From Cyanidioschyzon merolae (Eukaryota), in assembly GCA_000091205.1 (NCBI GenBank), contig AP006486.2: a stretch of 64,000 nt of DNA, one strand, 5' to 3'. Position 1 is the stretch's first letter, and each line of letters begins with the position of its first letter. The notes beneath the pieces were generated by a model, which had not been told where the DNA came from, made no database searches, and saw only the letters and a program-made list of their open reading frames with translations. Positions 1,690 through 51,960 of the stretch are shown piece after piece. The position numbers were made by a program, and so were the translations under genes.

Positions 1690-1819
1690 TCAAGCGCACG
1701 GAGGTCTTTTCGCGGTTGCAGCTCCCAAGCAAGCTCTGAAAATATGGTTCCGTTCAAAAAAAGATTCCCTGATACTTTACAAGTTTGTATATGTGTTAGA
1801 AAGCTGCAAGCGAAGATAC

Positions 1820-4345
1820 CGGTCTCGAGCAACACGATGTTCGAAAGTCGAACGTCGCCACCGGTGTACAGTAGTGGCGACCGGCGCCCTAGACAAGAAG
1901 TCGCTAACGGATGTGCAGACATCTCCCAGCCGCTTTGGACCGGCCACCTTCTACTGGTTCCAACTTTTTCTCGTATAGTTCCACTTTGAGAGGTTGTCCG
2001 ATAAAGTTCTCTCTTGTCGGCTCTGGAGGTCTTTTCTCTAGCACCGTACATTTCCTTATATTGATGGCGGCATTAAAGTCTCGGTTCACAAACTCCATCC
2101 GTTTCTTCCATCATTGCTTGTTCTAACCAGCGCAGGTAGTCCACGAACTTTCGTCCTCCTTTCCATTTGCTCCTCCTTCAGCGGTCCGCACTTTGCTATA
2201 TGTTCAGGGGTCCGTTGGCACTTTTCTTTCTCGACCATCTGAAGTGTACAACCCAGTTCATGGTGTGTATAGGACGTTCGAAACTCATCTATCGGTATCG
2301 TAACGAAGCGGCTTGTGCACTCCTTGTACGTTCTTGTTGACGGAGCTGTTGTACTCCCTTTCTTCGACGCCCAGCGTCCTGCCCCATACGCTACCAGGAG
2401 CCTCTGACTTCCATCCTCCTTCAAGGCGTTCAACCGGTTGAAAAAATTCGCAACCGCCCGCTGTTTTCCACAATACAAATTCATTCGCAAACGAGCCCAC
2501 CGGGGCTTGGTATACTCCGCCCACAGTGCATCCCCATGGGCAACACGAACATCCATGAATTTCCGAAAAGGTTCAAAGTCCGCTCCTCGGCTCGTCGCCT
2601 CGCTCAAAGCTTCCAGGTGATCCTTCATTTCTGCATTCCACGGACCAATTTTCTTTCTTGCATTCACTATACCGGATTCTCGATAGTATCTCGCTCTGGC
2701 GAGCCTCAAAAGACGCATGTCTGTCTGGCGTAAGTTGCAATCAGTACCATCATCCGCACGCTTGGGAGCAGCGATGGTTATGATATTTGTGTTTCTAGGA
2801 TCCCCGCCAACGACAAAGTCGTTATCCTGCACCTCCTGCATCGTAGGACCCGCCTCCTTCTCATCTTCATCCTTCGTCACGGGTGCAGCCGAGGACGGAA
2901 CTGAACAATCCGCGTTCAAGCGCCGATTGTGTGCACACAGGGCTACCCCATCGGTTTTGATCATCCCAGTAAATACCTTTTGCTTGCTCACTTTGAGACA
3001 TTTGAAATCGAAGATGTTCTTCCAGTACGTCTTCCGGTTTTCACCGGAGAACTCCTCCCTGCTAACATCGAACTCCGGACAGATCTCCTTCATGATGCCG
3101 TAAAGGATTCTGGAGTCGATAGTCACAAAATGTGACTTGATCTTGCCCAACGGAACCACGTCGAAGCGCTTCCCTACTAGGAAAGCCTTCCGTCTCTCCC
3201 ACTCTTCATTTTTCCCGTTCAGCTTCATCTCTGCCTTGCGTTCGAGTTCTCGGTCCAGAAACACGAAATAGCACAGAATGAGGCGATCGTATCTTTCCTG
3301 ATCTTTGCTCAACTCTGATACCTTGTCTGTTGGATTCGGTAGCCCCAGTACCGCACGATGCTCTTGTATAACCGCACGGATCGCAGAAGCTTCATTCGTG
3401 GTCTCGTTTGACGCCTTCTTGTCGACAAATTCTACCTCATCTTCACGCTTGCGATCTTTCATGATGCCATTGATAATCGTCCATTTTCCATTGCGAGAGA
3501 TGCCCGGGTAGAGTGCAAACACGGTGCGTATCATGAAACGTTCGAGGTTCCCTGTCTCATGGTTCTTCAGATTCGTGAGGTACTTCATCGCCCCATAGCT
3601 GTAGATATCTCGGTCACCCTTGTTTCGAGTATCTTTGAAGCTGTAAAAGGGATGTCTTTCGTGTAGGGCATGTACTTGCTCATTTTTCCCTCCGTGTTTG
3701 CCCTGAACCAAGCATCAGGTGACGAACGAAGGTCTTGTCGAAGATCTCGTCTGGAATCTCGACTGTTTTGATGGCCGCCACGTCGCGATACATCTCCCTC
3801 GCCAGATGCATCAGTCCTGACAACGCCTTGACGATACTCTTAGAGTACGAGTCGAAAAGGTTGTGGATGGCCTCTTGAAACATTTGCTTGTAGAGATCCT
3901 TGATGTAATTAAGAAGACAGGCTTTCACCACCATCTCGTTGTACAGTCGTCTTTCTTGCCGCCTTCGACGTGGGGCCTTCCCTCTTTCGGTTCTTCTTCT
4001 CCTCCTTTTCTTCTGGACACGGCACTGTTTTTTGTTTTTGTTTTCCAGCAGCCGGCGACCCTGGGCCTCCAGGATCGTCGACTCAGTTTTTCATAACTTT
4101 CCATTTTTTTGGTTTTTTTGAAAAAAGCACTCTGTGAACGCTTCTCCAATATACTACGAAAAAAACACTTGACTAGACTTGTTTGAGTTTTGAAACATAA
4201 ATGAACTGAAAAACTATACTTTGCTACGTCCTGAACGGAAATCCGACTTTTCCAGCTGAATAACACGCTACTGATCAAAATCGCGTTTCCCTTCAACAAC
4301 GGCACCGTGCGCGTCGTGTCTCATGCCTGCCAGATCTCCCAGGTG
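1820..4345 (-). mobile_element. Fanzor1-like (eukaryotic TnpB-like) element, family A, copy 1, ~2.5 kb, single ORF, no TIRs
   Basis: Ends were set by where similarity to copy 2 stops. The 5' end (in element sense) reads GCGCACCTGGGAGATCTGGC near 4345. The 3' end reads ...CCGGTGGCGACGTTCGACTTTCGAACA near 1820-1836. No terminal inverted repeats, as in IS200/605-type TnpB elements. Confidence 0.7.
1904..4104 (-). pseudogene. Fanzor1-like RuvC nuclease ORF (~730 aa reconstructed) broken by at least 3 frameshifts; largest intact piece 2086..3711
   Basis: RuvC-I QDNDFVVGGDPRNTNIITIA at ~2770-2826. Zinc finger CTSRF...HHELGC...KCQRTPEHIAKC at ~2185-2319. RuvC-III EFVNRDFNAAINIRK at ~2057-2083 sits in a -1 frame relative to upstream (1-nt deletion relative to copy 2 at ~2095). 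Further frame breaks at ~3700 and ~3930. Confidence 0.7.
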
Positions 4346-5019
4346 CGCTCACTATGCGTCGATTCGTTTTCCGATGTCAACACCTTGCCATAGAACATAG
4401 AATCCAGATTGCGGGATGGATACTGAAATAAATGAGAGCGCTCATTATTCTTCGCTCCACCTTCAAGTTCCATTACTTATACTTCCTCTGGGATCTACTG
4501 GTCGTTTCGTATATTCTATCGTGCACCGAGTGCCTGCCTCGCTGCACCTGCAATAGCGCCCGTATCGTTGGAGCAGCTGCATCACCGAGACAGAAGAGCT
4601 TTGCCATACCACTGAGGGCGTCGGATCGAGGAATACTTCTCCTCACACGGACTCGGAGTGCATAATCACTCTGGTAACCAGCATGCTGTGCTTAAAGGCC
4701 TACTGCCTGTGGCAGCGCGGAGCGATGTACTAGGAGCCACTGCGACCAGCGCAACGCCCAGAAGCAGCGTACCCGCTCCTAGTCCCAGGATAAACTGCGT
4801 TGCGGACGGACTGCTCAGATCGGACCAAAGCACCTGCCACTGGGAGGAGCATGAAGCACGAGGCTAGCTGTCTCGTACGACTCATGGGACCTTCCACCAA
4901 GAAGGTAAACCTTCGGCAATATGGAAAGCTTTCCCCTTTTAACGTTTCTCGTAGAGGGGTAACGAAATTGTTATCTCATTACTGCGTGGTCGCTCGTTGC
5001 TGTTCTTTTTCCTAGAGCG

Positions 5020-7530
5020 CAGTCTGTTAGCACACCTGGGAGATCTGGCGGGCGTGAGACACGACTTGCAACTCGCAGTTGAAGCGAAACACGATCCTGA
5101 TCATTTGTAGACTTGTTACTGTGACTGGCAAGTTGTATTTGCATGAAAGTCGTAGCAAAGTATAGTCTTTCAGTTCTATCATGTCTCAACCACCAAGTAA
5201 CTGTATTCAAGTGATATTTCGCGGTTTATAGCGGAAGCGTTAATCGTGAACTCGTTTGCAAAAATAAATAAAGTTATGGAAATGAAAGTAGAGGATCCTG
5301 GAGGGCCTGTGCCGCCGCGTGCCGAGAAAAATACGGAAAACAGTGCCGTCCATGAGGAACAGGTGAAGACGGTGAAGCAAAAGGGGGCGAACCGACACCA
5401 GAACCTGCACGAAAGACGACAGTACGACGAATTGGTAGTGAAAGCCTGTCTTCTTGAACGTAACGCGGATCCCGTGAAGCAAAAGTTCTGAGATGCCATC
5501 AGAAACCCTACTGCATCTCACTCCTTGAGTGTTTGTAACGCATCTTCAGCACCAATTCATCTGACGAAGGAGATGTACCATGACGTGACGGACATCAAAA
5601 AAGTCGAGGCTCCGGAAGAATTGTCCAACGTGACCTTCCTTCGCCACGAGATGCTTGACACATGGGAAACAACGAGGAGAAATGAGCGAGTGCATGCACT
5701 CTACGAAAATTATGCAGAGTGCCGCTCCAACGGCACTCGATATAGGGGTGACTCAAATGTTCACAATTACGTGGCGATGAAGTACCTCTCGAATCTGAAG
5801 AACAAAACGACCATGAACCTGAAACGCTTCATGATACGCTCCATCTTTGCGCTCTACCCTGGGCTGTCTCGAAAAAAAAGGATATGGGCCATCATGATTG
5901 GCATCACGAACGATCGTCGGGATGCACAGGAGATCGAATTCGTGAACAAGAGGACATCACACAGGAGAAGGAAGACGCTTCTTTGATCCGTGCGGCGATT
6001 CATAAGCACCGCGTGGTTTTGGGGCTTGTCAACCCAACAGAAAAGGTTTCAGATATGAAAAAAGATGTTTTTCCCGCATCCTGCGCTAGTTCGTGTTCCT
6101 GAAGCGTGAACTCGGACGCAAGGCCGAAAAGGAGCTGAATGGGGGAAAAATGGAGAGTTGTTGGAACGGAAAGCTTTCGTACTGGGGGAACGCTTCAATG
6201 TCGTTTCGTTTTGCAACATCTAGTCAATGTTTGTTACATTCGACTTCAGAGTCCTTCATGGCATCATGAGGGAGATCAGTCCAGGGTTCGATGTGAGGAA
6301 GATACGGTTCATCGGCGAGAAACCGGGAGACATACCAGAAGAACATCTTCGATTTGAGACATCTCAAAACGAGCAAGAAAAAGTATTAACGGAGATGATC
6401 GAAACCGATGGAGTAGCCGTATTCGTACACTATAGTCGCTTGAAGGCAGATCGTCCTGTTCCGTCTTCGCTATCGCACTTGGCGAAACGTGAAGAAAACA
6501 AGGATGCGGATCCTGCGACACAGAAAGTGCAGGATAACGACTTTGTCGTTGGCGCGAACCCCGGAAACACGAATATCGTAACCATCGCTGTGCCCAGGCG
6601 TGCGGAAGATGGTACTGACGGCAACTTACGCCAGAAAGACATGTGTCTTTTGAGGCTCGCCAGAGCGAGATACTATCGAGAATCCGGTATAGTGAATGCA
6701 AGAAAGAAAATTGGTACGTGGAATGCAGAAATGAAGGATCACCTGGAAGCTTTGAGCGAGGCGACGAGCCGAGGAGCGGACTTTGAACCTTTTCGGAAAT
6801 TCATGGATGTTCGTGTTGCCCATGGGGATGCACTGTGGGCGGAGTATACCAAGCCCCGGTAGGCTCGTTTGCGAATGAATTTGTATTGTGGAAAACAGCG
6901 GGCGGTTGCGAATTTTTTCAATCGGTTGAACGCCTTGAAGGAGAATGAAAGTCAAAGGCTGGTAGTGGCATACTGAGCAGGGCGATGGAAGACCCGAAAA
7001 GGGTGTACGCCAGCTCCAATGACAAGAGCGTACAAGGAGTGCACGACGTTTCGTTACAATGCCTGTCGATGAGTTTCGAACATCGTATGCACACCATGAA
7101 CTGGGATGTACACTTCAGAAGGTCGAGATGGAAAAGTGCTAGCGGAGCCCTGAACATATAGCAAAGTGCGGACCGCTGACGGAGGAGCAAATAGAAAGGA
7201 GAGCGAAAGTTCGTGGACTACCTGCGCTGGTTAGAACAAGCAATGATGGCAAGAAACGGATGGAGTTTGTGAACCGAGACTTTAATGCCGCCATCAATAT
7301 AAGGAAATATACCGTGCTGGAGACGAGACCTCCAGAGCCGACAAGAGAGAACTTTATTGGACAACCTCTCAAAGTGGTACTATACGAGAAGAAGTTGGAA
7401 GCAGTAGTGGGTGGCCGGTCCAAAAAGACTGCGAGGCGCCTGCACATCAGTTGGCGTCTTCTTGTCTAGGGCGCCGGTCCCCGTTACTGTACACCGGTGG
7501 CGACGTTCGACTTTAGAACAGCGTTGATGG
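5020..7530 (+). mobile_element. Fanzor1-like element copy 2 (mosaic: 5' half family-B-like, 3' ~0.7 kb ~97% identical to copy 1), inverted head-to-head with copy 1
   Basis: Same termini as copy 1 (5' ...GCACACCTGGGAGATCTGGCGGG at ~5029, 3' ...CCGGTGGCGACGTTCGACTTTAGAACAGCG at ~7526). A ~675 bp spacer (4345-5020) separates the two inverted copies. Confidence 0.7.
5246..7469 (+). pseudogene. Fanzor1-like nuclease ORF, copy 2, multiple stops/frameshifts; RuvC-I aspartate replaced by asparagine
   Basis: ORF pieces 5246..5491, 5525..5986, 6227..6862 and 7260..7469. RuvC-I reads DNDFVVGANPGNTNIVTIA (D->N at ~6557). An in-frame TAG sits in the zinc-finger region (~7141). RuvC-III MEFVNRDFNAAINIRK at 7260-7307 is in frame with LPALVRTSNDGKKR upstream. 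Confidence 0.7.
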
Positions 7531-7563
7531 CGCCGCTCTGAAAATTCGCGTACCTCCGCGAGG

Positions 7564-10331: not shown

Positions 10332-11924
10332 AAAATAGAGTCTCCCAAGGTATCCTAGCAAACACGCAAAAAGTACACGATCGTGCGCGCTCTTCAGTAA
10401 CAAAACGCTCCAGCCAATAGGGGAGGCAGCGCAGCGCCCTGCGCCATCCGCCGTCAGCCGTCGACGCGATGCGCGCAGCATTGCTGCACTGCCCGGAAAG
10501 CGCGGCTTCGTATAGCTGGTGCTCTTCCGGAGACTGGGACGCAGAGCGGCACCTACATCGCAGTCGTATAACAGAAGCAACATCAGCAGAAGCACACGAG
10601 GGGAGTACGTTTGATTCGGTATAGCTGGAGGCAGCGTTCAACGACGGTTGCGTACGAGCGACCTGCGTTACGCTAGGGCGCTTTTTCTCGCGTGAACGAC
10701 CGGAAGCGGTTGGTACCAGGAGTGCCAGCACCGAAGCCTCTTGTGGTGTGACTGCTACCCAGAAAGCGTCCCGCTGGTGGCGGGCTCGGTTCAGCGAGCG
10801 CGTGAGTTCGCATCTTCGTGCGTACGACGACAGGCACGTAGAGACGCCAGCGTAACGGGTGTAGTGCGCGCCTCCGCCGGGTAACGCTCTTTACCATAAG
10901 GTCGCTGCTTCCAGAAAAGTGTGGTAACATTCGACTGGCGGTTTCACGAACGTGTCATAGTGACAACTGGAACAGCGTACCACCGGTAAGCATGGGTGGT
11001 ACACCGCGCTACCCGTACCCACGCGACGTCTGGTCGCCAGCTGGCGGCTGGTGGCCGCATCCTCGCGCTTGGCGTAGGAACACTGCAGTGGCAGCGTTCG
11101 GCCTCGTTCTTGTTCTGACGCCGATCTTCATCTACTCTGAGCGGATCTCCGAACGGCCTGAGGACGCCGCACGCCAGATCCCTTGGCGGCCGTGGGTCAA
11201 GGTGCGGGCAAACTCCATGACGTCAGAAACTGAACCCGGGCAGCACTGAGGGCCTTGCTGCAGCATGCGGCGGTGCGTCGAGAGCATCAGCGCTTGTGGA
11301 TGGAGCTTGTGCTTCCAAGTCGATCAAGGAGCGGTCACGCAAGCGACGATATAAACCAGAGATTCCGACGCGGTGAGATTCTTCTCTGAACGGAACGGAC
11401 AGGAAAGAATGGCATTTAAGGGTTCTATGCGGAGCGACGCGGACATCTGACCTGTGTTGCATGCGCGGCGCTCCGTGTATCTGTTTCCATATGAGTGCTG
11501 TTATGCGCTGTGGCGAGCAGTGCCAGCGGCAGCGTCTGGTACCAGTATCGCCGCTAACAACGAGCACACTACACTGCACACGCAGTGCAGCCGACAAGCT
11601 CCAGGACGGCAGGTACCAGCGACACACTTGGAGCAACGGGCAGGTTGCGCTTGTCCGATCGTATCCGTTGAGATGGATGCGCATGCTTGTTCCCGCTATC
11701 GAAAATGCAACGGTTGTGTGTCACTTTCGTGAACCGAGTTCGTCTGCGCCAGTCTTTATCGCGTATCTTGTTGCGCCCGAGAAAGATACCGTAAAAACAC
11801 GAGAAACACACCAAGGGTCCCGCATCACCATAAACGTTGAAGCTCGCGAAAACGTGCTGCCCTGGTATCCCAAACCGCGCAAACGTCAGCCAGCGCCGTC
11901 CGCTCCCGCGACCGTAGAATGCAT

Positions 11925-12140
11925 CGCTGGTGAACGTACAACTCACCTCAGGCCCTTTTATCACTCAGAGAACAACATGACGAAGTATGACTGTGCTAGT
12001 GTCCCGAAAGATGCACCGCTGGCGACCATAAACCGCACCTCAGGCCCTTTTATCACTCAGAGAACAACATGACGAAGTATGACTGCGGTGGTGTCCCACC
12101 AGATGCACCGCTGGCGAACGTACAACTCACCTCAGATCCT
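11925..12140. repeat. ~91-bp minisatellite, ~2.3 tandem copies
   Basis: Unit ACCTCAGGCCCTTTTATCACTCAGAGAACAACATGACGAAGTATGACTG...GATGCACCGCTGGCGA.. repeats with period ~91 bp (starts ~11946, ~12037, partial ~12128). Confidence 0.8.
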
Positions 12141-12239
12141 TCCACCGAACTATAGACAACAACACCCTAGACGTCAAAGCTGCCGTCAGCGACTGCAGCC
12201 GCAGGATGAGCGCGTGAACATCCCAGCTCCTCCAACGTC

Positions 12240-31527: not shown

Positions 31528-32000
31528 ATGGCGGCAGCTCTGCGAGTCTCTTGTCGTCAGCACCGCACACATCATCTGGTATTGGTGGCAGCATTGAAAT
31601 CTGGGTTCTCGAGCTCCATGCGTTTATTGCCGCTGAATGAACTCGCCAGCGCAAGGATTCCTCTAATTTGTACCCTCTGTGGAAATACAGTCTCACCATC
31701 GTCCCGTCGGGCAAACACCTCTTCTCGCATATACCCCATCGTCTTCGTCACTTGCGTTTCTTCGCTCGATTGTCGGCGAGAAGAAGATTTTTTCGTTTTG
31801 TTTTCGGGCACCCGGCGATGATGGCCCTCCAGGATCCGCGACTTTCCGGTCCATACCTTCCCATTAGATTTTTATTTCTTCAAATGAACGCACTTTGAAC
31901 GCTTCTCCAATAAACCGCGAAAGCGCATTTGATGACACGGAAGTGAGCGTGCAATGCAATTAAGGTGAAAGACTATGCCAGCGCGAGCATATGCTAGACC
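31528..32000 (-). mobile_element. internally deleted non-autonomous derivative (mini-element 1) of the family-A Fanzor element
   Basis: The 5'-end-homologous part (31800-32000) aligns with copy-1 3900-4300 (e.g. ccctccaggatccgcgactttccggtcc vs cctccaggatcgtcgactcagtttttc; gaacgcttctccaata shared). The 3' part retains a decayed RuvC-III block (ENPDFNAATNTR at ~31581-31607, minus strand). About 1.8 kb of ORF is missing. Confidence 0.55.
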
Positions 32001-33483: not shown

Positions 33484-33990
33484 TTTCCATCTCAATTGCG
33501 TTCCATGCCCAGGTGCGTTTCATTGAATGCTCTCTCGTGGTTCATAGCAGAGGCGGTGGAAGTGCGTCCCTTTGATGCGCTAAACATCTGAGGGAAATGG
33601 ATGGGCGTGAAAGTCGGGAGTCCTGGACAGCTTCTATAGCCGGGTGTCCGAAAAAGAAATGAAAATAGTTTTCCCTCGCCGACAATCGAGCGAGGAAGCG
33701 CAAGTAACGGCGAAGAAGACGACGAAGAGGGTAGACCGGCGAGAAAAGTGTTTATCCTGCGGGAGAGTCACGAGACTGTTGCTGGACAGAGGCCAAGAAC
33801 GCTTGGGATCCTCGCACCGGTGCAATCAACCAGAGGCAATGCACGTACGGAGTTCGTGAACCGAAACGTAACATTGCCATCATTACGCGACGATGCTCGT
33901 GGAGCTGACGCGAGCCAACTTTGTTCGTGTAGCTCTAGCTCCAGCAGAATCGGCAAACGCTCAAACACGCAGGGCCTGGTGAAATCCCAA
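33484..33990 (+). mobile_element. internally deleted derivative (mini-element 2) of the family-B Fanzor element (copy-3-like)
   Basis: 5' part tccatctcaattgcgttccatgcccaggtgcgtttcattgaatgctct aligns with copy-3 49595-49650 ctaaactcaattgtgttccatcgccaggtgcgtggaatcaaatgctct. 3' part has decayed RuvC-III TEFVNRNVT and gagctgacgcgagccaactttgt matching copy-3 51770-51800. Confidence 0.5.
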
Positions 33991-40551: not shown

Positions 40552-40623
40552 TGCGCAAGCGAGGAATCGAACCTCGATCTTCACGGCCACAACGTGATGT
40601 TCTGACCGTTAAACTACTTGCGC
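40552..40623 (-). tRNA. tRNA-His (anticodon GTG)
   Basis: Minus-strand sequence GCGCAAGTAGTTTAACGGTCAGAACATCACGTTGTGGCCGTGAAGATCGAGGTTCGATTCCTCGCTTGCGCA folds as a cloverleaf. Acceptor GCGCAAG/CTTGCGC, anticodon stem TCACG/CGTGA with loop TTGTGGC (GTG), T-arm CGAGGTTCGATTCCTCG, discriminator A. No genomically encoded G-1. Confidence 0.8.
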
Positions 40624-45229: not shown

Positions 45230-45800
45230 TGTTATAGTTTTTCAGTTTATCTAGGTACAGTTCGGGTGCCAAAGACTGCCCCACGACGTTGGATCGCTTC
45301 AGCTCTTCGAGTATCGTCTTCAGCACCGCATATCGTCTGATACAGATGGAGATGTTGAAGTCTTGCTTGAATATACCATCGCAGGGATTGCTGGCACTTG
45401 TACCCTCTCTGCCGCAACAGGCTCGTCATTGTCCCGTCAAGCAAACTGCCTTACTCGCCTATCTGCCCTTTTCTTGTTAGTCATTTGCTATTCTCTGCTC
45501 GATGGTCGGCGTGAAGAGGGTTCTTCTTTTTTGTGAAATTCGCCTATGAGAGTCCATCAGGATCCCCGACTTGCGTGTCCATAACTTTCCTTCATTTTTT
45601 TAAATCTTCAAATGAACGCACTTGTTTATGCCCAAAGGTGAGGAGTCTCCCCCGACTGCGAAGGACTTGTGGAAGAAAGATGACGCGTGCCCCAATGTCT
45701 ACATGTGCTGAACGCTTCAGCGAGTCGCCCAGTCCAGCGATCATTACGTTTTACCATAGAAAACACTCTAGCCATGGGTTTGAACCAGGCAGCGCGCTAA
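45230..45800 (-). mobile_element. internally deleted derivative (mini-element 3) of the family-A Fanzor element, same deletion junction as mini-element 1
   Basis: 45290-45640 aligns continuously with mini-element 1 31560-31915 (e.g. ccatcaggatccccgacttgcgtgtccataactttcc vs ccctccaggatccgcgactttccggtccataccttcc; tcttcaaatgaacgcact shared). The 45640-45790 stretch continues into the 5'-end region (ctgaacgcttc, aaaacactctagcc vs copy-1 aaaacacttgactag). Confidence 0.5.
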
Positions 45801-49587: not shown

Positions 49588-51960
49588 GTGCATTTCTATC
49601 CTCTAAACTCAATTGTGTTCCATCGCCAGGTGCGTGGAATCAAATGCTCTTCCGCGGTTCATTGCAGACGTGCTCGATGTGGGTTCATTTGAAGAAATAA
49701 AAAGTTCTGCGAATGGAATTGGAGACTTCTGGAAGCCTGATTTCGCCGGCTGCCGCAGAAAAACGAAAAGCAGTGTTGAGCGAAGAGGAACAAGACAGCA
49801 TGAAGAGGCAGAGGCAGGAGGCCCTGCGTCAAAAGCTGCTCGAAAGATGAGAGTACGACGAGACGGTCGTGGACGCCTGTCTTCTTGTACATGTCAAGGA
49901 TCCGTATGAGCAAACGATGCAAGCGGACGTCAGAAACCGTGTCGAGTCGTACCGCATAAGTATGATAAAGGCCGCTCCAAGACTGATGTATGTGGTAACG
50001 AAAGTGTATCGCGACATAACGCACGCGGAAACAATCGAGTTTCCAGAGGAAATTTCCAACGTAACCTTCATCGGCCACCTGACGCTTGCCACCGGGGAAA
50101 CGTCGAGGTGAAATGAGCGGGTGCATGGCCTCCATGAAAATTACGCCAAATACCGCCTCAACGGCACTCGATACAGGGATGACTCGGGTGTTTACACCTA
50201 CGGGGCGTTGAATTACCCTACGAACCTGAGAAAGCATATGAACATGAACCTGAAACGCTTCATGGTACGCGCCGTCATTGCGCTGTACCCGGGCCTCTCT
50301 CGCAAAGGGATACGAGTCATCATCCGTGGCATCACGAATGATCGACAGCATGAACAGGAGATCGAATTCTTCCACAAGAAGACATCACGCAAGAGAAAGA
50401 ATGAAGCTTCTGTAATCCGTGCGGCTATTATTGAGCACCGTGCAGTCTTGGGGCTTGTCAACCTACAAGAAAAGATATCAGATAGGAAAAAAGATGAAGA
50501 AAGATGTTATCCCCTAATCCTGCGCAATTTCGTGTTTTTTGACCGAGAACTCGAACGCAAAGCCGACATGGAGCTGAGTAGGGGAAAATGCGCAGTCGGA
50601 GAGACGCAAGGCTGCGGTTCCGGGGAGGCGCCTCAATATCGTTCCGTTATGCTACGTCAAGTCACGCGTTGTGACAATCGACTCCACAATCCTTTATACC
50701 ATCATGAAGGAGATCAGTCCCGAGTTCAATGCAAGCAGGGAGAAGTTCACCCGCGGAGACGGGAAAATCTACCGGATGAATATCTTCGATTTCAAGCGCC
50801 TCAACACCAGCAAGAAAAAGTTATTCACTGGGATGATCGAAAGCGATGGAGTAGCCGTGTGTGGAGACTATCGGCGCTTGAAGGCGGATCGCCCAGTTCC
50901 GTCATCGGCTTCGCCCTTGGCGAAGCATGAAGAAAACAAAGAGGCTGGCAGTACGAAACAGGAGGCGCAGGAGGACGACTGTGCCGTTGGCGCGGACCCG
51001 GGAACACGAATATCGTACCCATCGCAGCACCCAAGCGTGCGGAAGACGGTATCGACGGCAACTTACGCCACAATGACATGCGACTTCCAAAGTACTTGAG
51101 AGCGAAAAATTGCCGATAATCGGGAATAATGAATGCAAGGAAGGAAAGTGAGACATGGAATGCAGGAGTGAGCGCGCACCTGGAAGCTATGAGCAATTTC
51201 GCGAGTCGTGGATCGAACTTTCATTTCTTTCGTGAATTCATGGAATATCAAGCTGCTCGTGACGAGGAGCTGTGGAAATAGCAAACAGAACCGCGATGGG
51301 CTCGTCTGCGAATGAATCCGCACAGAGGGAAGCAGCGCGCGTTCGCGAAATTTTTCAAACAGTTGATTGCCCTCATGGAGGACAAGAGTCAAAGGCTCAT
51401 ACTAGCATACGGAACTGGGCGCTGGGCACCCGGAAAAGGGTGTGTACCCGCCCCGTCGACGAGAGCGTACAAGGAGTGCGCACGATGTTTTGTCACGATA
51501 CCGGTAGATGAGCTCCGAACATCGTATGTGGATCATGAACTGGGATGTCCACCTCCGAGAGTCGAGATGGAAAAGTGCCCGTGGAGCCCTGAGGATATAA
51601 AAAAGCACGGAGAGCTGACGGAGCATCAAATGGCTCAGAGGGCGCGAGTTGGAGGACTCCTTGCATAGGTGAGCTCTACCAACGGTAACAAACGCACTGA
51701 CTTCGTGAACCCAGACTTTAACGCCGCTATCAATATCAGACGACGTGCTGTATTGGAGAAGAGATATCCCGAGCTAACGAGAGCCAACTTTGTCGGGCAA
51801 CCTCTTAAGGTGGCACTCTACGAGAAGCATTTGAAACCGATCGCAGCGGGCCGGTCGTAAACGGCCGGGAGACGCCTGCCGGGTGGATACCTATCTACCC
51901 TATGTGGCCGTGGAACATTTTTCGTTTCACTGACAAATGAGTTTGCGCTGGTAGCGCGTA
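49588..51960 (+). mobile_element. Fanzor1-like element copy 3 (family B, ~55-60% protein identity to family A), 3' end approximate
   Basis: 5' boundary was set by the end of homology with mini-element 2. The 3' region gggccggtcgtaaacggccgggagacgcctgc parallels the family-A ggtggccggtccaaaaagactgcgaggcgcctgc. Confidence 0.6.
49700..51860 (+). pseudogene. Fanzor1-like nuclease ORF copy 3, broken into pieces (49869..50111, 50121..50930, 50671..51099, 51312..51668, 51669..51860)
   Basis: N-terminal MYVVTKVYRDITHAETIEFPEEISNVTFIGHL and NERVHGLHENY...LYPGLSRKG...IEHRAVLGLVN...FVFFDRELERKA are homologous to copies 1 and 2. RuvC-I DDCAVGADPGTR has a frameshift inside the motif. Zinc finger KECARCF...HELGCP...KCPWSPEDIKKHG. 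RuvC-III DFVNPDFNAAINIRRR at ~51705-51737. Confidence 0.65.

Follow-up and report, generated by a model that had tools for sequence, protein, structure and literature searches.

The last ~70 nucleotides (nt) of CMe-1A, a Fanzor1-coding transposon of the red alga Cyanidioschyzon merolae, probably once encoded the scaffold of a guide RNA (omega-RNA) of the type used by the Fanzor1 protein SpuFz1, and the 64-kb stretch of C. merolae DNA analysed here (the window) contains the decayed right end of a dead copy of this element. According to covariance modelling, the family conserves a ~70-nt end module, in which a stem-loop of 7 base pairs (bp) with the stop codon UAG inside it is joined through a CUGUA linker to a ~41-nt terminal hairpin. 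The interpretation draws on modelled folds and on the analogy with solved omega-RNAs. The module of the window copies does nothing now, because their genes are broken.

Structure of the end module

The module was described with a covariance model built from 11 copies, and pairing statistics were taken over 51 related pseudogene copies. The model produces 88 hits, all on the gene-sense strand at the element end, and in the window it matches at 1823-1894 on the minus strand (55.6 bits) and at 7464-7536 on the plus strand (49.5 bits), which are the right ends of two copies, hereafter copies 1 and 2 (Table 1). When each copy is folded separately, stem-loop 1 (SL1) and the terminal hairpin (stem 2) emerge as two recurrent elements. 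SL1 has the family form UAG-GGCG...CGCC-A-CUA, with 88.5% of its cells paired. SL1, the linker and the long hairpin are found together in five of the six subfamily consensus sequences that were folded; the sixth, which represents the window's own sublineage, folds instead into an alternative stem that had been singled out in an earlier note on this DNA. The hairpin is most stable in well-kept copies such as L018 (CACCGUUGGCGUCGUUCGA-CUU-UCGAACGGCGUUGAUGGUG; -33.1 kcal/mol, z = -5.3) and L035 (z = -4.0), and another subfamily builds it from a different sequence (GGCGACAACGUUUUUC-UUUU-GAAAGGCGUUUGUUGUC). For the 66-nt module of copy 1 the predicted fold has -26.7 kcal/mol (z = -2.5) and goes through the sublineage-specific stem.

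Several lines of evidence bear on whether the pairing of the terminal hairpin was selected. In the model alignment 80.3% of the cells are paired, compared to 31-56% with the partners slid, and double changes occur at 14 of the 26 model pairs, a number reached by 9 of 500 shuffles, while the covariation score is matched by a single one of 500. Furthermore, swapping the 5' and 3' arms between copies lowers the stability from -14.8 kcal/mol (native) to -12.9 kcal/mol, and no permutation out of 5000 reaches the low energy of the native combination. The terminal hairpin has z < -2 in 27 of the 51 copies. The pairing is also strand-specific, since in 48 of the 51 copies the sense strand forms the stabler fold (-14.8 vs -9.0 kcal/mol for the antisense strand, Wilcoxon 1e-9), G·U accounts for 22% of the terminal-hairpin pairs, and the stem 2 cells contain G·U 201 times and A·C 41 times, which are counts of sequences and not of independent events. 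Together, the arm swaps, the strand asymmetry, the G·U excess and the covariation point to a terminal hairpin that paired as sense-strand RNA rather than as a DNA palindrome.

These measurements also bear on the simplest alternative, namely that nothing in the 3' region is functional, that the region is transposon sequence shared by descent and that its stems are chance complementarity in GC-rich DNA. Such an explanation does hold for the alternative stem of the window's sublineage and for the ~200 nt upstream of the module, where there is neither a consensus fold nor covariation in the best long-range candidate, and it would fit the observations that all element positions are about equally conserved and that SL1 shows no covariation. 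As an account of the terminal hairpin it is very unlikely, given the advantage of native arms over chimeras (0 of 5000 permutations as low), the excess of double changes, the number of copies with z < -2 (27/51), the strand asymmetry (p ~1e-9) and the recurrence of the same fold in five of six subfamily consensuses despite their differing sequence.

The structured region does not extend into the open reading frame (ORF). RNAalifold applied to the last 214 nt of the 51 copies returned only a 3-bp consensus stem and no conserved fold reaching into the ORF, hence a scaffold overlapping the ORF has no support. A long-range complement between GCAGTAGT in the ORF and ACTACTGT in the untranslated region (UTR) was considered as well; it is 88% paired, shows no covariation and was dropped.

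The earlier note had proposed the last ~200 bp of copies 1 and 2 as the omega-RNA scaffold, with a perfect 8-bp inverted repeat as its hallmark. The shared 3' ends were borne out, as 1834-2107 and 7251-7524 are 91% complementary over 274 nt; this region is, however, mostly ORF. The 8-bp repeat is likewise present in copy 1 (GTCGCCAC...GTGGCGAC, overlapping CACCGGTG at 1859-1866), with its arms at 1854-1861 and 1874-1881 instead of 1851-1858 and 1872-1879. As a family feature it did not survive: 56.7% of its cells are paired in the 51 copies, 135 of 500 shuffles reach that value, the slid control is similar, two of the eight pairs have double changes, and no covariation is seen. The stem belongs to one sublineage, in which the loss of 4 nt from the loop of SL1 created it. 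The 5' arm of copy 2, said to carry two pairing-breaking substitutions, has three differences, two of which give G·U wobbles in RNA, and the notion of relaxed constraint in a dead copy 2 beside a live copy 1 falls away because both copies are dead. The covariance test suggested in the same note gave a divided answer, with moderate covariation in stem 2 and none in SL1, the 8-bp stem or the ORF-UTR complement.

The right boundary and the flank

The module and the element end at the same place. Across 53 independent 3' ends the information content is high up to window column 1833, fades by 1827 and is zero beyond, and the covariance model sets the element end at ~1826/1827 in copy 1 and at 7532 in copy 2. 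Conservation across the 53 copies thus stops at the base of the terminal hairpin, where the final paired position coincides with the final conserved one of the element, and the non-coding tail between stop codon and boundary is only ~66-75 nt long. If the module was an omega-RNA, the 20 nt beyond it (1806-1825) would occupy the position of the guide.

The flanks of copies 1 and 2 do diverge soon after ...GAACA, as had been noted; the element end at ~1826 nevertheless lies outside the 1838-1840 given for it earlier, a placement 8-12 nt too far inside. Because of this shift the guides proposed at that time were out of register, beginning inside the element by 5 nt in copy 1 and by 7 nt in copy 2, and the true terminal hairpin, which crosses the supposed boundary, was for that reason overlooked. 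What stands of the original proposal is that the element appears to have a structured end, with two hairpins and co-varying pairing, which finishes where conservation finishes and is followed by a flank that would serve as the guide; its extent, its stem, its boundary and its guide sequences had to be replaced.

The coincidence of hairpin base and element boundary also suits the main rival explanation, according to which the terminal hairpin was a DNA-level transposition signal (a single-strand hairpin or cruciform recognized by a transposase or replicase, like the 3' hairpins of Helitrons or the subterminal ones of IS200/IS605) and not, or not only, an RNA scaffold. The hairpin forms the extreme 3' terminus of an element that lacks terminal inverted repeats and a known transposase (PMC3627910). 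Helitrons, which bear 3' hairpins, often carry Fanzor1 genes, and with their 3' subterminal hairpin CMe-1A shares a GC-rich hairpin near the 3' end and the absence of inverted repeats. However, the strand-specific and G·U-rich pairing of CMe-1A is not expected of such a signal, as G·U pairs poorly in DNA and is mismatched on the other strand. The end itself reads ...GGTG (GGCGTTGATGGTG) and not CTRR after a 10-12-nt spacer, and a 5' TC is missing too. In addition, the left ends examined have no comparable hairpin and bear other, unrelated palindromes, and a transposase gene was not found inside the element. On balance a DNA signal is unlikely, and it may coexist with an RNA role: in IS200/IS605 elements the right-end hairpin overlaps the omega-RNA region, so both roles could reside in the same sequence.

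A further alternative accepts the RNA structure and assigns it an ordinary function in the 3'-UTR of the Fanzor mRNA, such as 3'-end formation, stability or translation termination, with no guide involved. On the sense strand the module follows the stop codon directly, SL1 includes this codon, and the structure is RNA-like with its G·U pairs, all of which would be compatible with this proposal. It is nevertheless quite unlikely, since the structured block and the transposon end at precisely the same point, with no conserved 3'-processing signal after it, its architecture and size agree with the SpuFz1 omega-RNA, and the nearest solved relatives of the protein all use an RNA of this kind.

Comparison with known omega-RNAs

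The omega-RNA of SpuFz1 from Spizellomyces punctatus (8GKH; Saito et al. 2023, PMC10432273) is 75 nt long and contains two stems, a 6-nt linker and no pseudoknot, with stem 2 at nucleotides 35-75 and a guide of 14-15 nt transcribed from the flank (PMC10432273). Every solved Fz1 omega-RNA has an SL1 of seven base pairs, which touches the RuvC and TNB domains, and SpuFz1 and PpFz1 have a single stem-loop 2 (SL2) before the guide (PMC11423790). The predicted scaffold of CMe-1A has the same arrangement, with a total of ~70-75 nt, a short SL1, a linker of 5-6 nt, one long stem of ~41 nt, no pseudoknot and a variable flank right after the last stem, and SpuFz1 is also the nearest solved relative of the CMe-1A protein. 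The likeness of the two RNAs is one of layout and not of sequence, and the systems differ in further respects: CMe-1A lacks the 30-nt terminal inverted repeats, it has its stop codon within SL1, and in this window no 'ghost' loci (a module without a gene) were seen.

A bacterial counterpart, the ISDra2 TnpB omega-RNA, overlaps the 3' coding region of tnpB by ~100 nt or more and has a pseudoknot, whereas CMe-1A has no conserved structure in the ORF and a layout of two simple hairpins. What the ISDra2 RNA (reRNA, IS200/IS605) does have in common with the CMe-1A module is an origin at the transposon right end and a guide taken out of the flank (PMC10432273).

By analogy with SpuFz1, a transcript running through the end of the ORF and out of the element would have been trimmed to the scaffold plus ~15-20 nt of flank, the Fanzor1 protein would have bound SL1 and the base of stem 2, and the flank-derived guide would have directed the cleavage of matching DNA beside a target-adjacent motif. 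If true, the thermoacidophilic red alga would provide a compact (~70-nt) Fanzor1 guide-RNA scaffold, and hundreds of natural variants in hot-spring metagenomes show which sequence changes such a scaffold can accommodate. The retention of coding capacity by an old 'non-autonomous' family, which was a puzzle in 2013 (PMC3627910), would then be explained as well. A literature search retrieved no paper linking a Fanzor omega-RNA to C. merolae, and the supplements of the 2023 Fanzor papers that were examined do not mention this alga.

Several results weigh against an omega-RNA origin of the module. Its conservation as such is what common descent gives to any transposon end. SL1 is conserved without covariation and, lacking variation, says nothing about selection. 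For stem 2 the covariation gives moderate support, as the alignment was fitted to the model and the copies are related pseudogenes. In the window itself the signal is poor: stem 2 of copy 1 taken alone has z = -0.8, with 8 of the 26 model pairs mispaired, and the copy 2 module folds with z = +0.6. Moreover, no match to the interval 1750-2200 was obtained in Rfam at the gathering threshold or at E values up to 10, and no sequence likeness to a known omega-RNA was found. A complete ORF was sought among 81 related loci and none was found, and neither a left end nor a target-adjacent motif could be defined from the 5' ends and left flanks examined. Finally, the terminal hairpin could also, or instead, be the DNA-level signal discussed above.

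The Fanzor1 protein and its coding state

The link to Fanzor1 relies on a profile search and a fold search; Pfam and Protein Data Bank searches with a single repaired protein gave no match. A profile made from 16 family members matches SpuFz1 (8GKH) with E = 4e-7. For the longest relative (P0001), the AlphaFold model (predicted local distance difference test, pLDDT, 70.5) was compared to solved structures with Foldseek, which placed SpuFz1 (9CEU) first (E = 2e-16, template-modelling score 0.68-0.70) and PpFz1 and GtFz1 next, the top Fanzor1 matches ranging from 2e-16 to 3e-12. Sequence profile and modelled fold thus identify the family protein as Fanzor1, with SpuFz1 as the nearest solved structure. 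The frame of the window repeat encodes the RuvC-like D...E...D motifs VGGDPRNTN, DEFRTS and NRDFNAAINI; in the family they read VGADPGNTN, DEFRTS and NRDFNAAINI and are found in the C-terminal half, and copy 1 has all three, the third out of frame. The segment between RuvC-II and RuvC-III, which corresponds to the C4 zinc-finger site, reads THHELGC...EKC in CMe-1A and offers only two cysteines plus two histidines. More distant relatives have RGLLWC, and Pfam PF07282 is matched only by the distant P0060-62.

Copies 1 to 3 all contain frameshifts or stops, and copies 1 and 2, the two that bear the 3' ends, are dead pseudogenes. In copy 1 the damage comprises two or more frameshifts, one premature stop and another stop close to the start. 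Its ORF appears to end at 2086 because a 1-nt deletion between 2107 and 2108 shifts the frame, and what had been taken for conservation beyond the stop codon is largely coding sequence, as 1892-2107 is still read in the family. With the missing C restored, the frame continues through RuvC-III to the premature TAG at 1904-1906. The environmental alleles L001 and L004 of this locus (~99.7% identical) keep this C and run uninterrupted from RuvC-I to RuvC-III (P0002, 453 aa); the missing C of strain 10D is either a strain-specific mutation or an error of the reference. Consequently, ~209 of the 281 bases originally flagged are coding and only ~66 are non-coding element sequence. The lesson for annotation is that the locus comprises two head-to-head Fanzor1 pseudogenes, that the apparent ORF end is a frameshift and that the end module occupies the final 66 bases rather than 280.

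Among the 81 loci the best frame is that of L010, with 778 codons; it includes all of the RuvC motifs and breaks off at a premature stop, ~35 codons short of the family stop. L010 (2150-4483, P0001) also has four tandem segments of ~25 residues (..ATQKVQDNDFVVD/G..) right before the RuvC-I aspartate, and for these (residues 373-471) the AlphaFold confidence is below 30.

Host, family and copies

The genes of the window are intron-free and eukaryotic, and three of the proteins are identical to C. merolae 10D entries (BAM79145.1, BAM79159.1 and BAM79164.1). The flagged repeat is present three times in the 64-kb window. By its description, namely the host, the size, the copy number and identity and the absence of inverted repeats, the repeat family is the published CMe-1A, which comprises ~150 copies with ~80% identity to a consensus of ~3 kb, codes for Fanzor1 and has no inverted repeats (PMC3627910). 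Its target duplications were left undetermined, and its 5' 635 bp are identical to the element TE-N2_CMe (PMC3627910). The elements described by Bao and Jurka in 2013 (CMe-1A/TE-N2_CMe, PMC3627910) and those studied here share the C. merolae host, the Fanzor1 coding sequence, the length of ~3 kb, the lack of inverted repeats, the many copies at ~75-85% identity and a ~630-680-nt 5' part common to one group of copies. In contrast, the 2013 description, which is older than the discovery of omega-RNAs, is silent on a structured 3' end, and the Fanzor core is here also linked to other 5' extensions.

Copies 1 and 2 stand head-to-head with no spacer, and the ~650 nt between their cores (4340-5035) are copy 2's own 5' extension, which is common to seven other loci and is probably the TE-N2_CMe part. 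The first bases of this extension overlap the 5' end of copy 1 around CGATTCG, and the 5' limit of copy 1 is only approximate because it adjoins the left end of copy 2. In copy 3 a scan with the covariance model detected no module (best E = 0.13, on the wrong strand). Past its stop codon, the sequence bears no relation to the 3' module of the other two copies.

Table 1. Window coordinates of the CMe-1A copies and of the features at their right ends
Feature	Position	Strand	Basis
Flank at the right end of copy 1, sense strand AGACCGGUAUCUUCGCUUGC	1806-1825	-	Zero conservation beyond the boundary in 53 copies
CMe-1A copy 1, Fanzor1 core unit, pseudogene	1826-4352 (5' limit approximate)	-	Repeat pairs, 5' alignments, frames, family right end
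Terminal hairpin (stem 2), 41 nt, eroded in copy 1; its 3' base is the element right end	1826-1866	-	Minimum free energy (MFE) folds, covariance model
8-bp repeat of the earlier note, pairing part of SL1 with part of stem 2	1854-1881 (arms 1854-1861, 1874-1881)	-	Present in the copy 1 MFE fold
Linker CUGUA, nearly invariant in the family	1867-1871	-	Alignment, information content
SL1, UAGGGCG-CCGGU-CGCCACUA, 7 conserved pairs, begins with the family stop UAG	1872-1891	-	MFE tallies, model alignment
Family stop TAG	1889-1891	-	Family C-termini
C-terminal Fanzor1 coding part	1892-2107	-	Translations, family C-termini, alignment with intact alleles
Premature in-frame TAG	1904-1906	-	Family consensus TGG (Trp), tail ...RRLHVSWRLLV*
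RuvC-III motif NRDFNAAINI (FVNRDFNAAINI)	2057-2086 (encoded)	-	Translation
1-nt deletion (missing C) in 10D	between 2107 and 2108	-	Copy 2, L001 and L004 read GATGGCAAG; copy 1 GATGG-AAG
CMe-1A copy 2, pseudogene, 5' extension 4366-5033 (~650 nt, TE-N2_CMe-like) plus Fanzor core	4366-7532	+	Repeat pairs, frames
Copy 2 3' module, decayed (SL1 7467-7486, linker 7487-7491, stem 2 7492-7532)	7467-7532	+	Covariance model, fold
Copy 3, more diverged Fanzor1 pseudogene without the 3' module	49600-51950	+	Repeat pairs, frames

A metagenome scan took 79 loci from more than 390 relatives, all of them found in a small number of hot-spring sample series. The Joint Genome Institute (JGI) metagenome series Ga0078972, Ga0080006, Ga0123519, Ga0207433 and JGI24721 are rich in the family (>390 matches, many at contig ends), and some metagenome loci (L003-L081) have two to three copies, which are 3.7-3.9 kb apart or head-to-head. 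Two distant relatives from other samples, L082 (2149-2285) and L083 (3252-3402), with 40-42% protein identity, have in common a ~140-nt structured region after the stop, which ends at AACCATCTATATAYTT and in which 6 of the 29 predicted pairs are compensatory in a comparison of two sequences only. This would fit, if weakly, a structured 3' module as a general trait of this Fanzor1 clade.

The left end and a possibly modular core

The Fanzor core is ~2.5 kb long, with the palindromes CGCTCAGTGAGCG and CCTGGGAGATCTGGCAGG on its left and the terminal hairpin on its right. Three or more unrelated 5' extensions of 450-680 nt join it at one point, just upstream of CGCTCAGTGAGCG/CCTGGGAGATCTGGCAGG (L009-L078 and others; window 4330-4352 and 5020-5050), which suggests that the core is a module moving or recombining separately from the 5' part. 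The 5' ends of group B seem to begin at TGAT(T/C)TTT without a clear flank motif. No target duplication was found, inspection by eye gave no inverted-repeat match to the right end, and the conserved target-adjacent motif that had been anticipated 5' of the elements was not found at the left flanks examined.

It is conceivable, and very doubtful, that the core was a self-contained RNA-guided homing cassette carried by unrelated 5' partners including TE-N2_CMe, and that it spread without a transposase. In such a scheme the breaks made by Fanzor would be repaired by recombination between dispersed carrier copies. The idea arises because the core joins at least three extensions at the same point, because the CMe-1A family has no known transposase, inverted repeats or target duplications (PMC3627910), and because copies are often adjacent.

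Other features of the window

Repeats of ~100-230 nt at 31739-31970, 33485-33716 and 45524-45623 resemble the start-codon region of Fanzor, and two of them lie 1.5 kb from each other in inverted orientation. They were rejected as Fanzor genes, as no Fanzor ORF is found nearby and their neighbours are host genes, among them those for a tRNA-binding protein and an inositol 5-phosphatase/RhoGAP. A 92-nt unit occurs three times in tandem at 11912-12187 (100%, 86% and 62% identity to the reference copy), and a tRNA gene on the minus strand at 40552-40623 is the sole Rfam match in the window.

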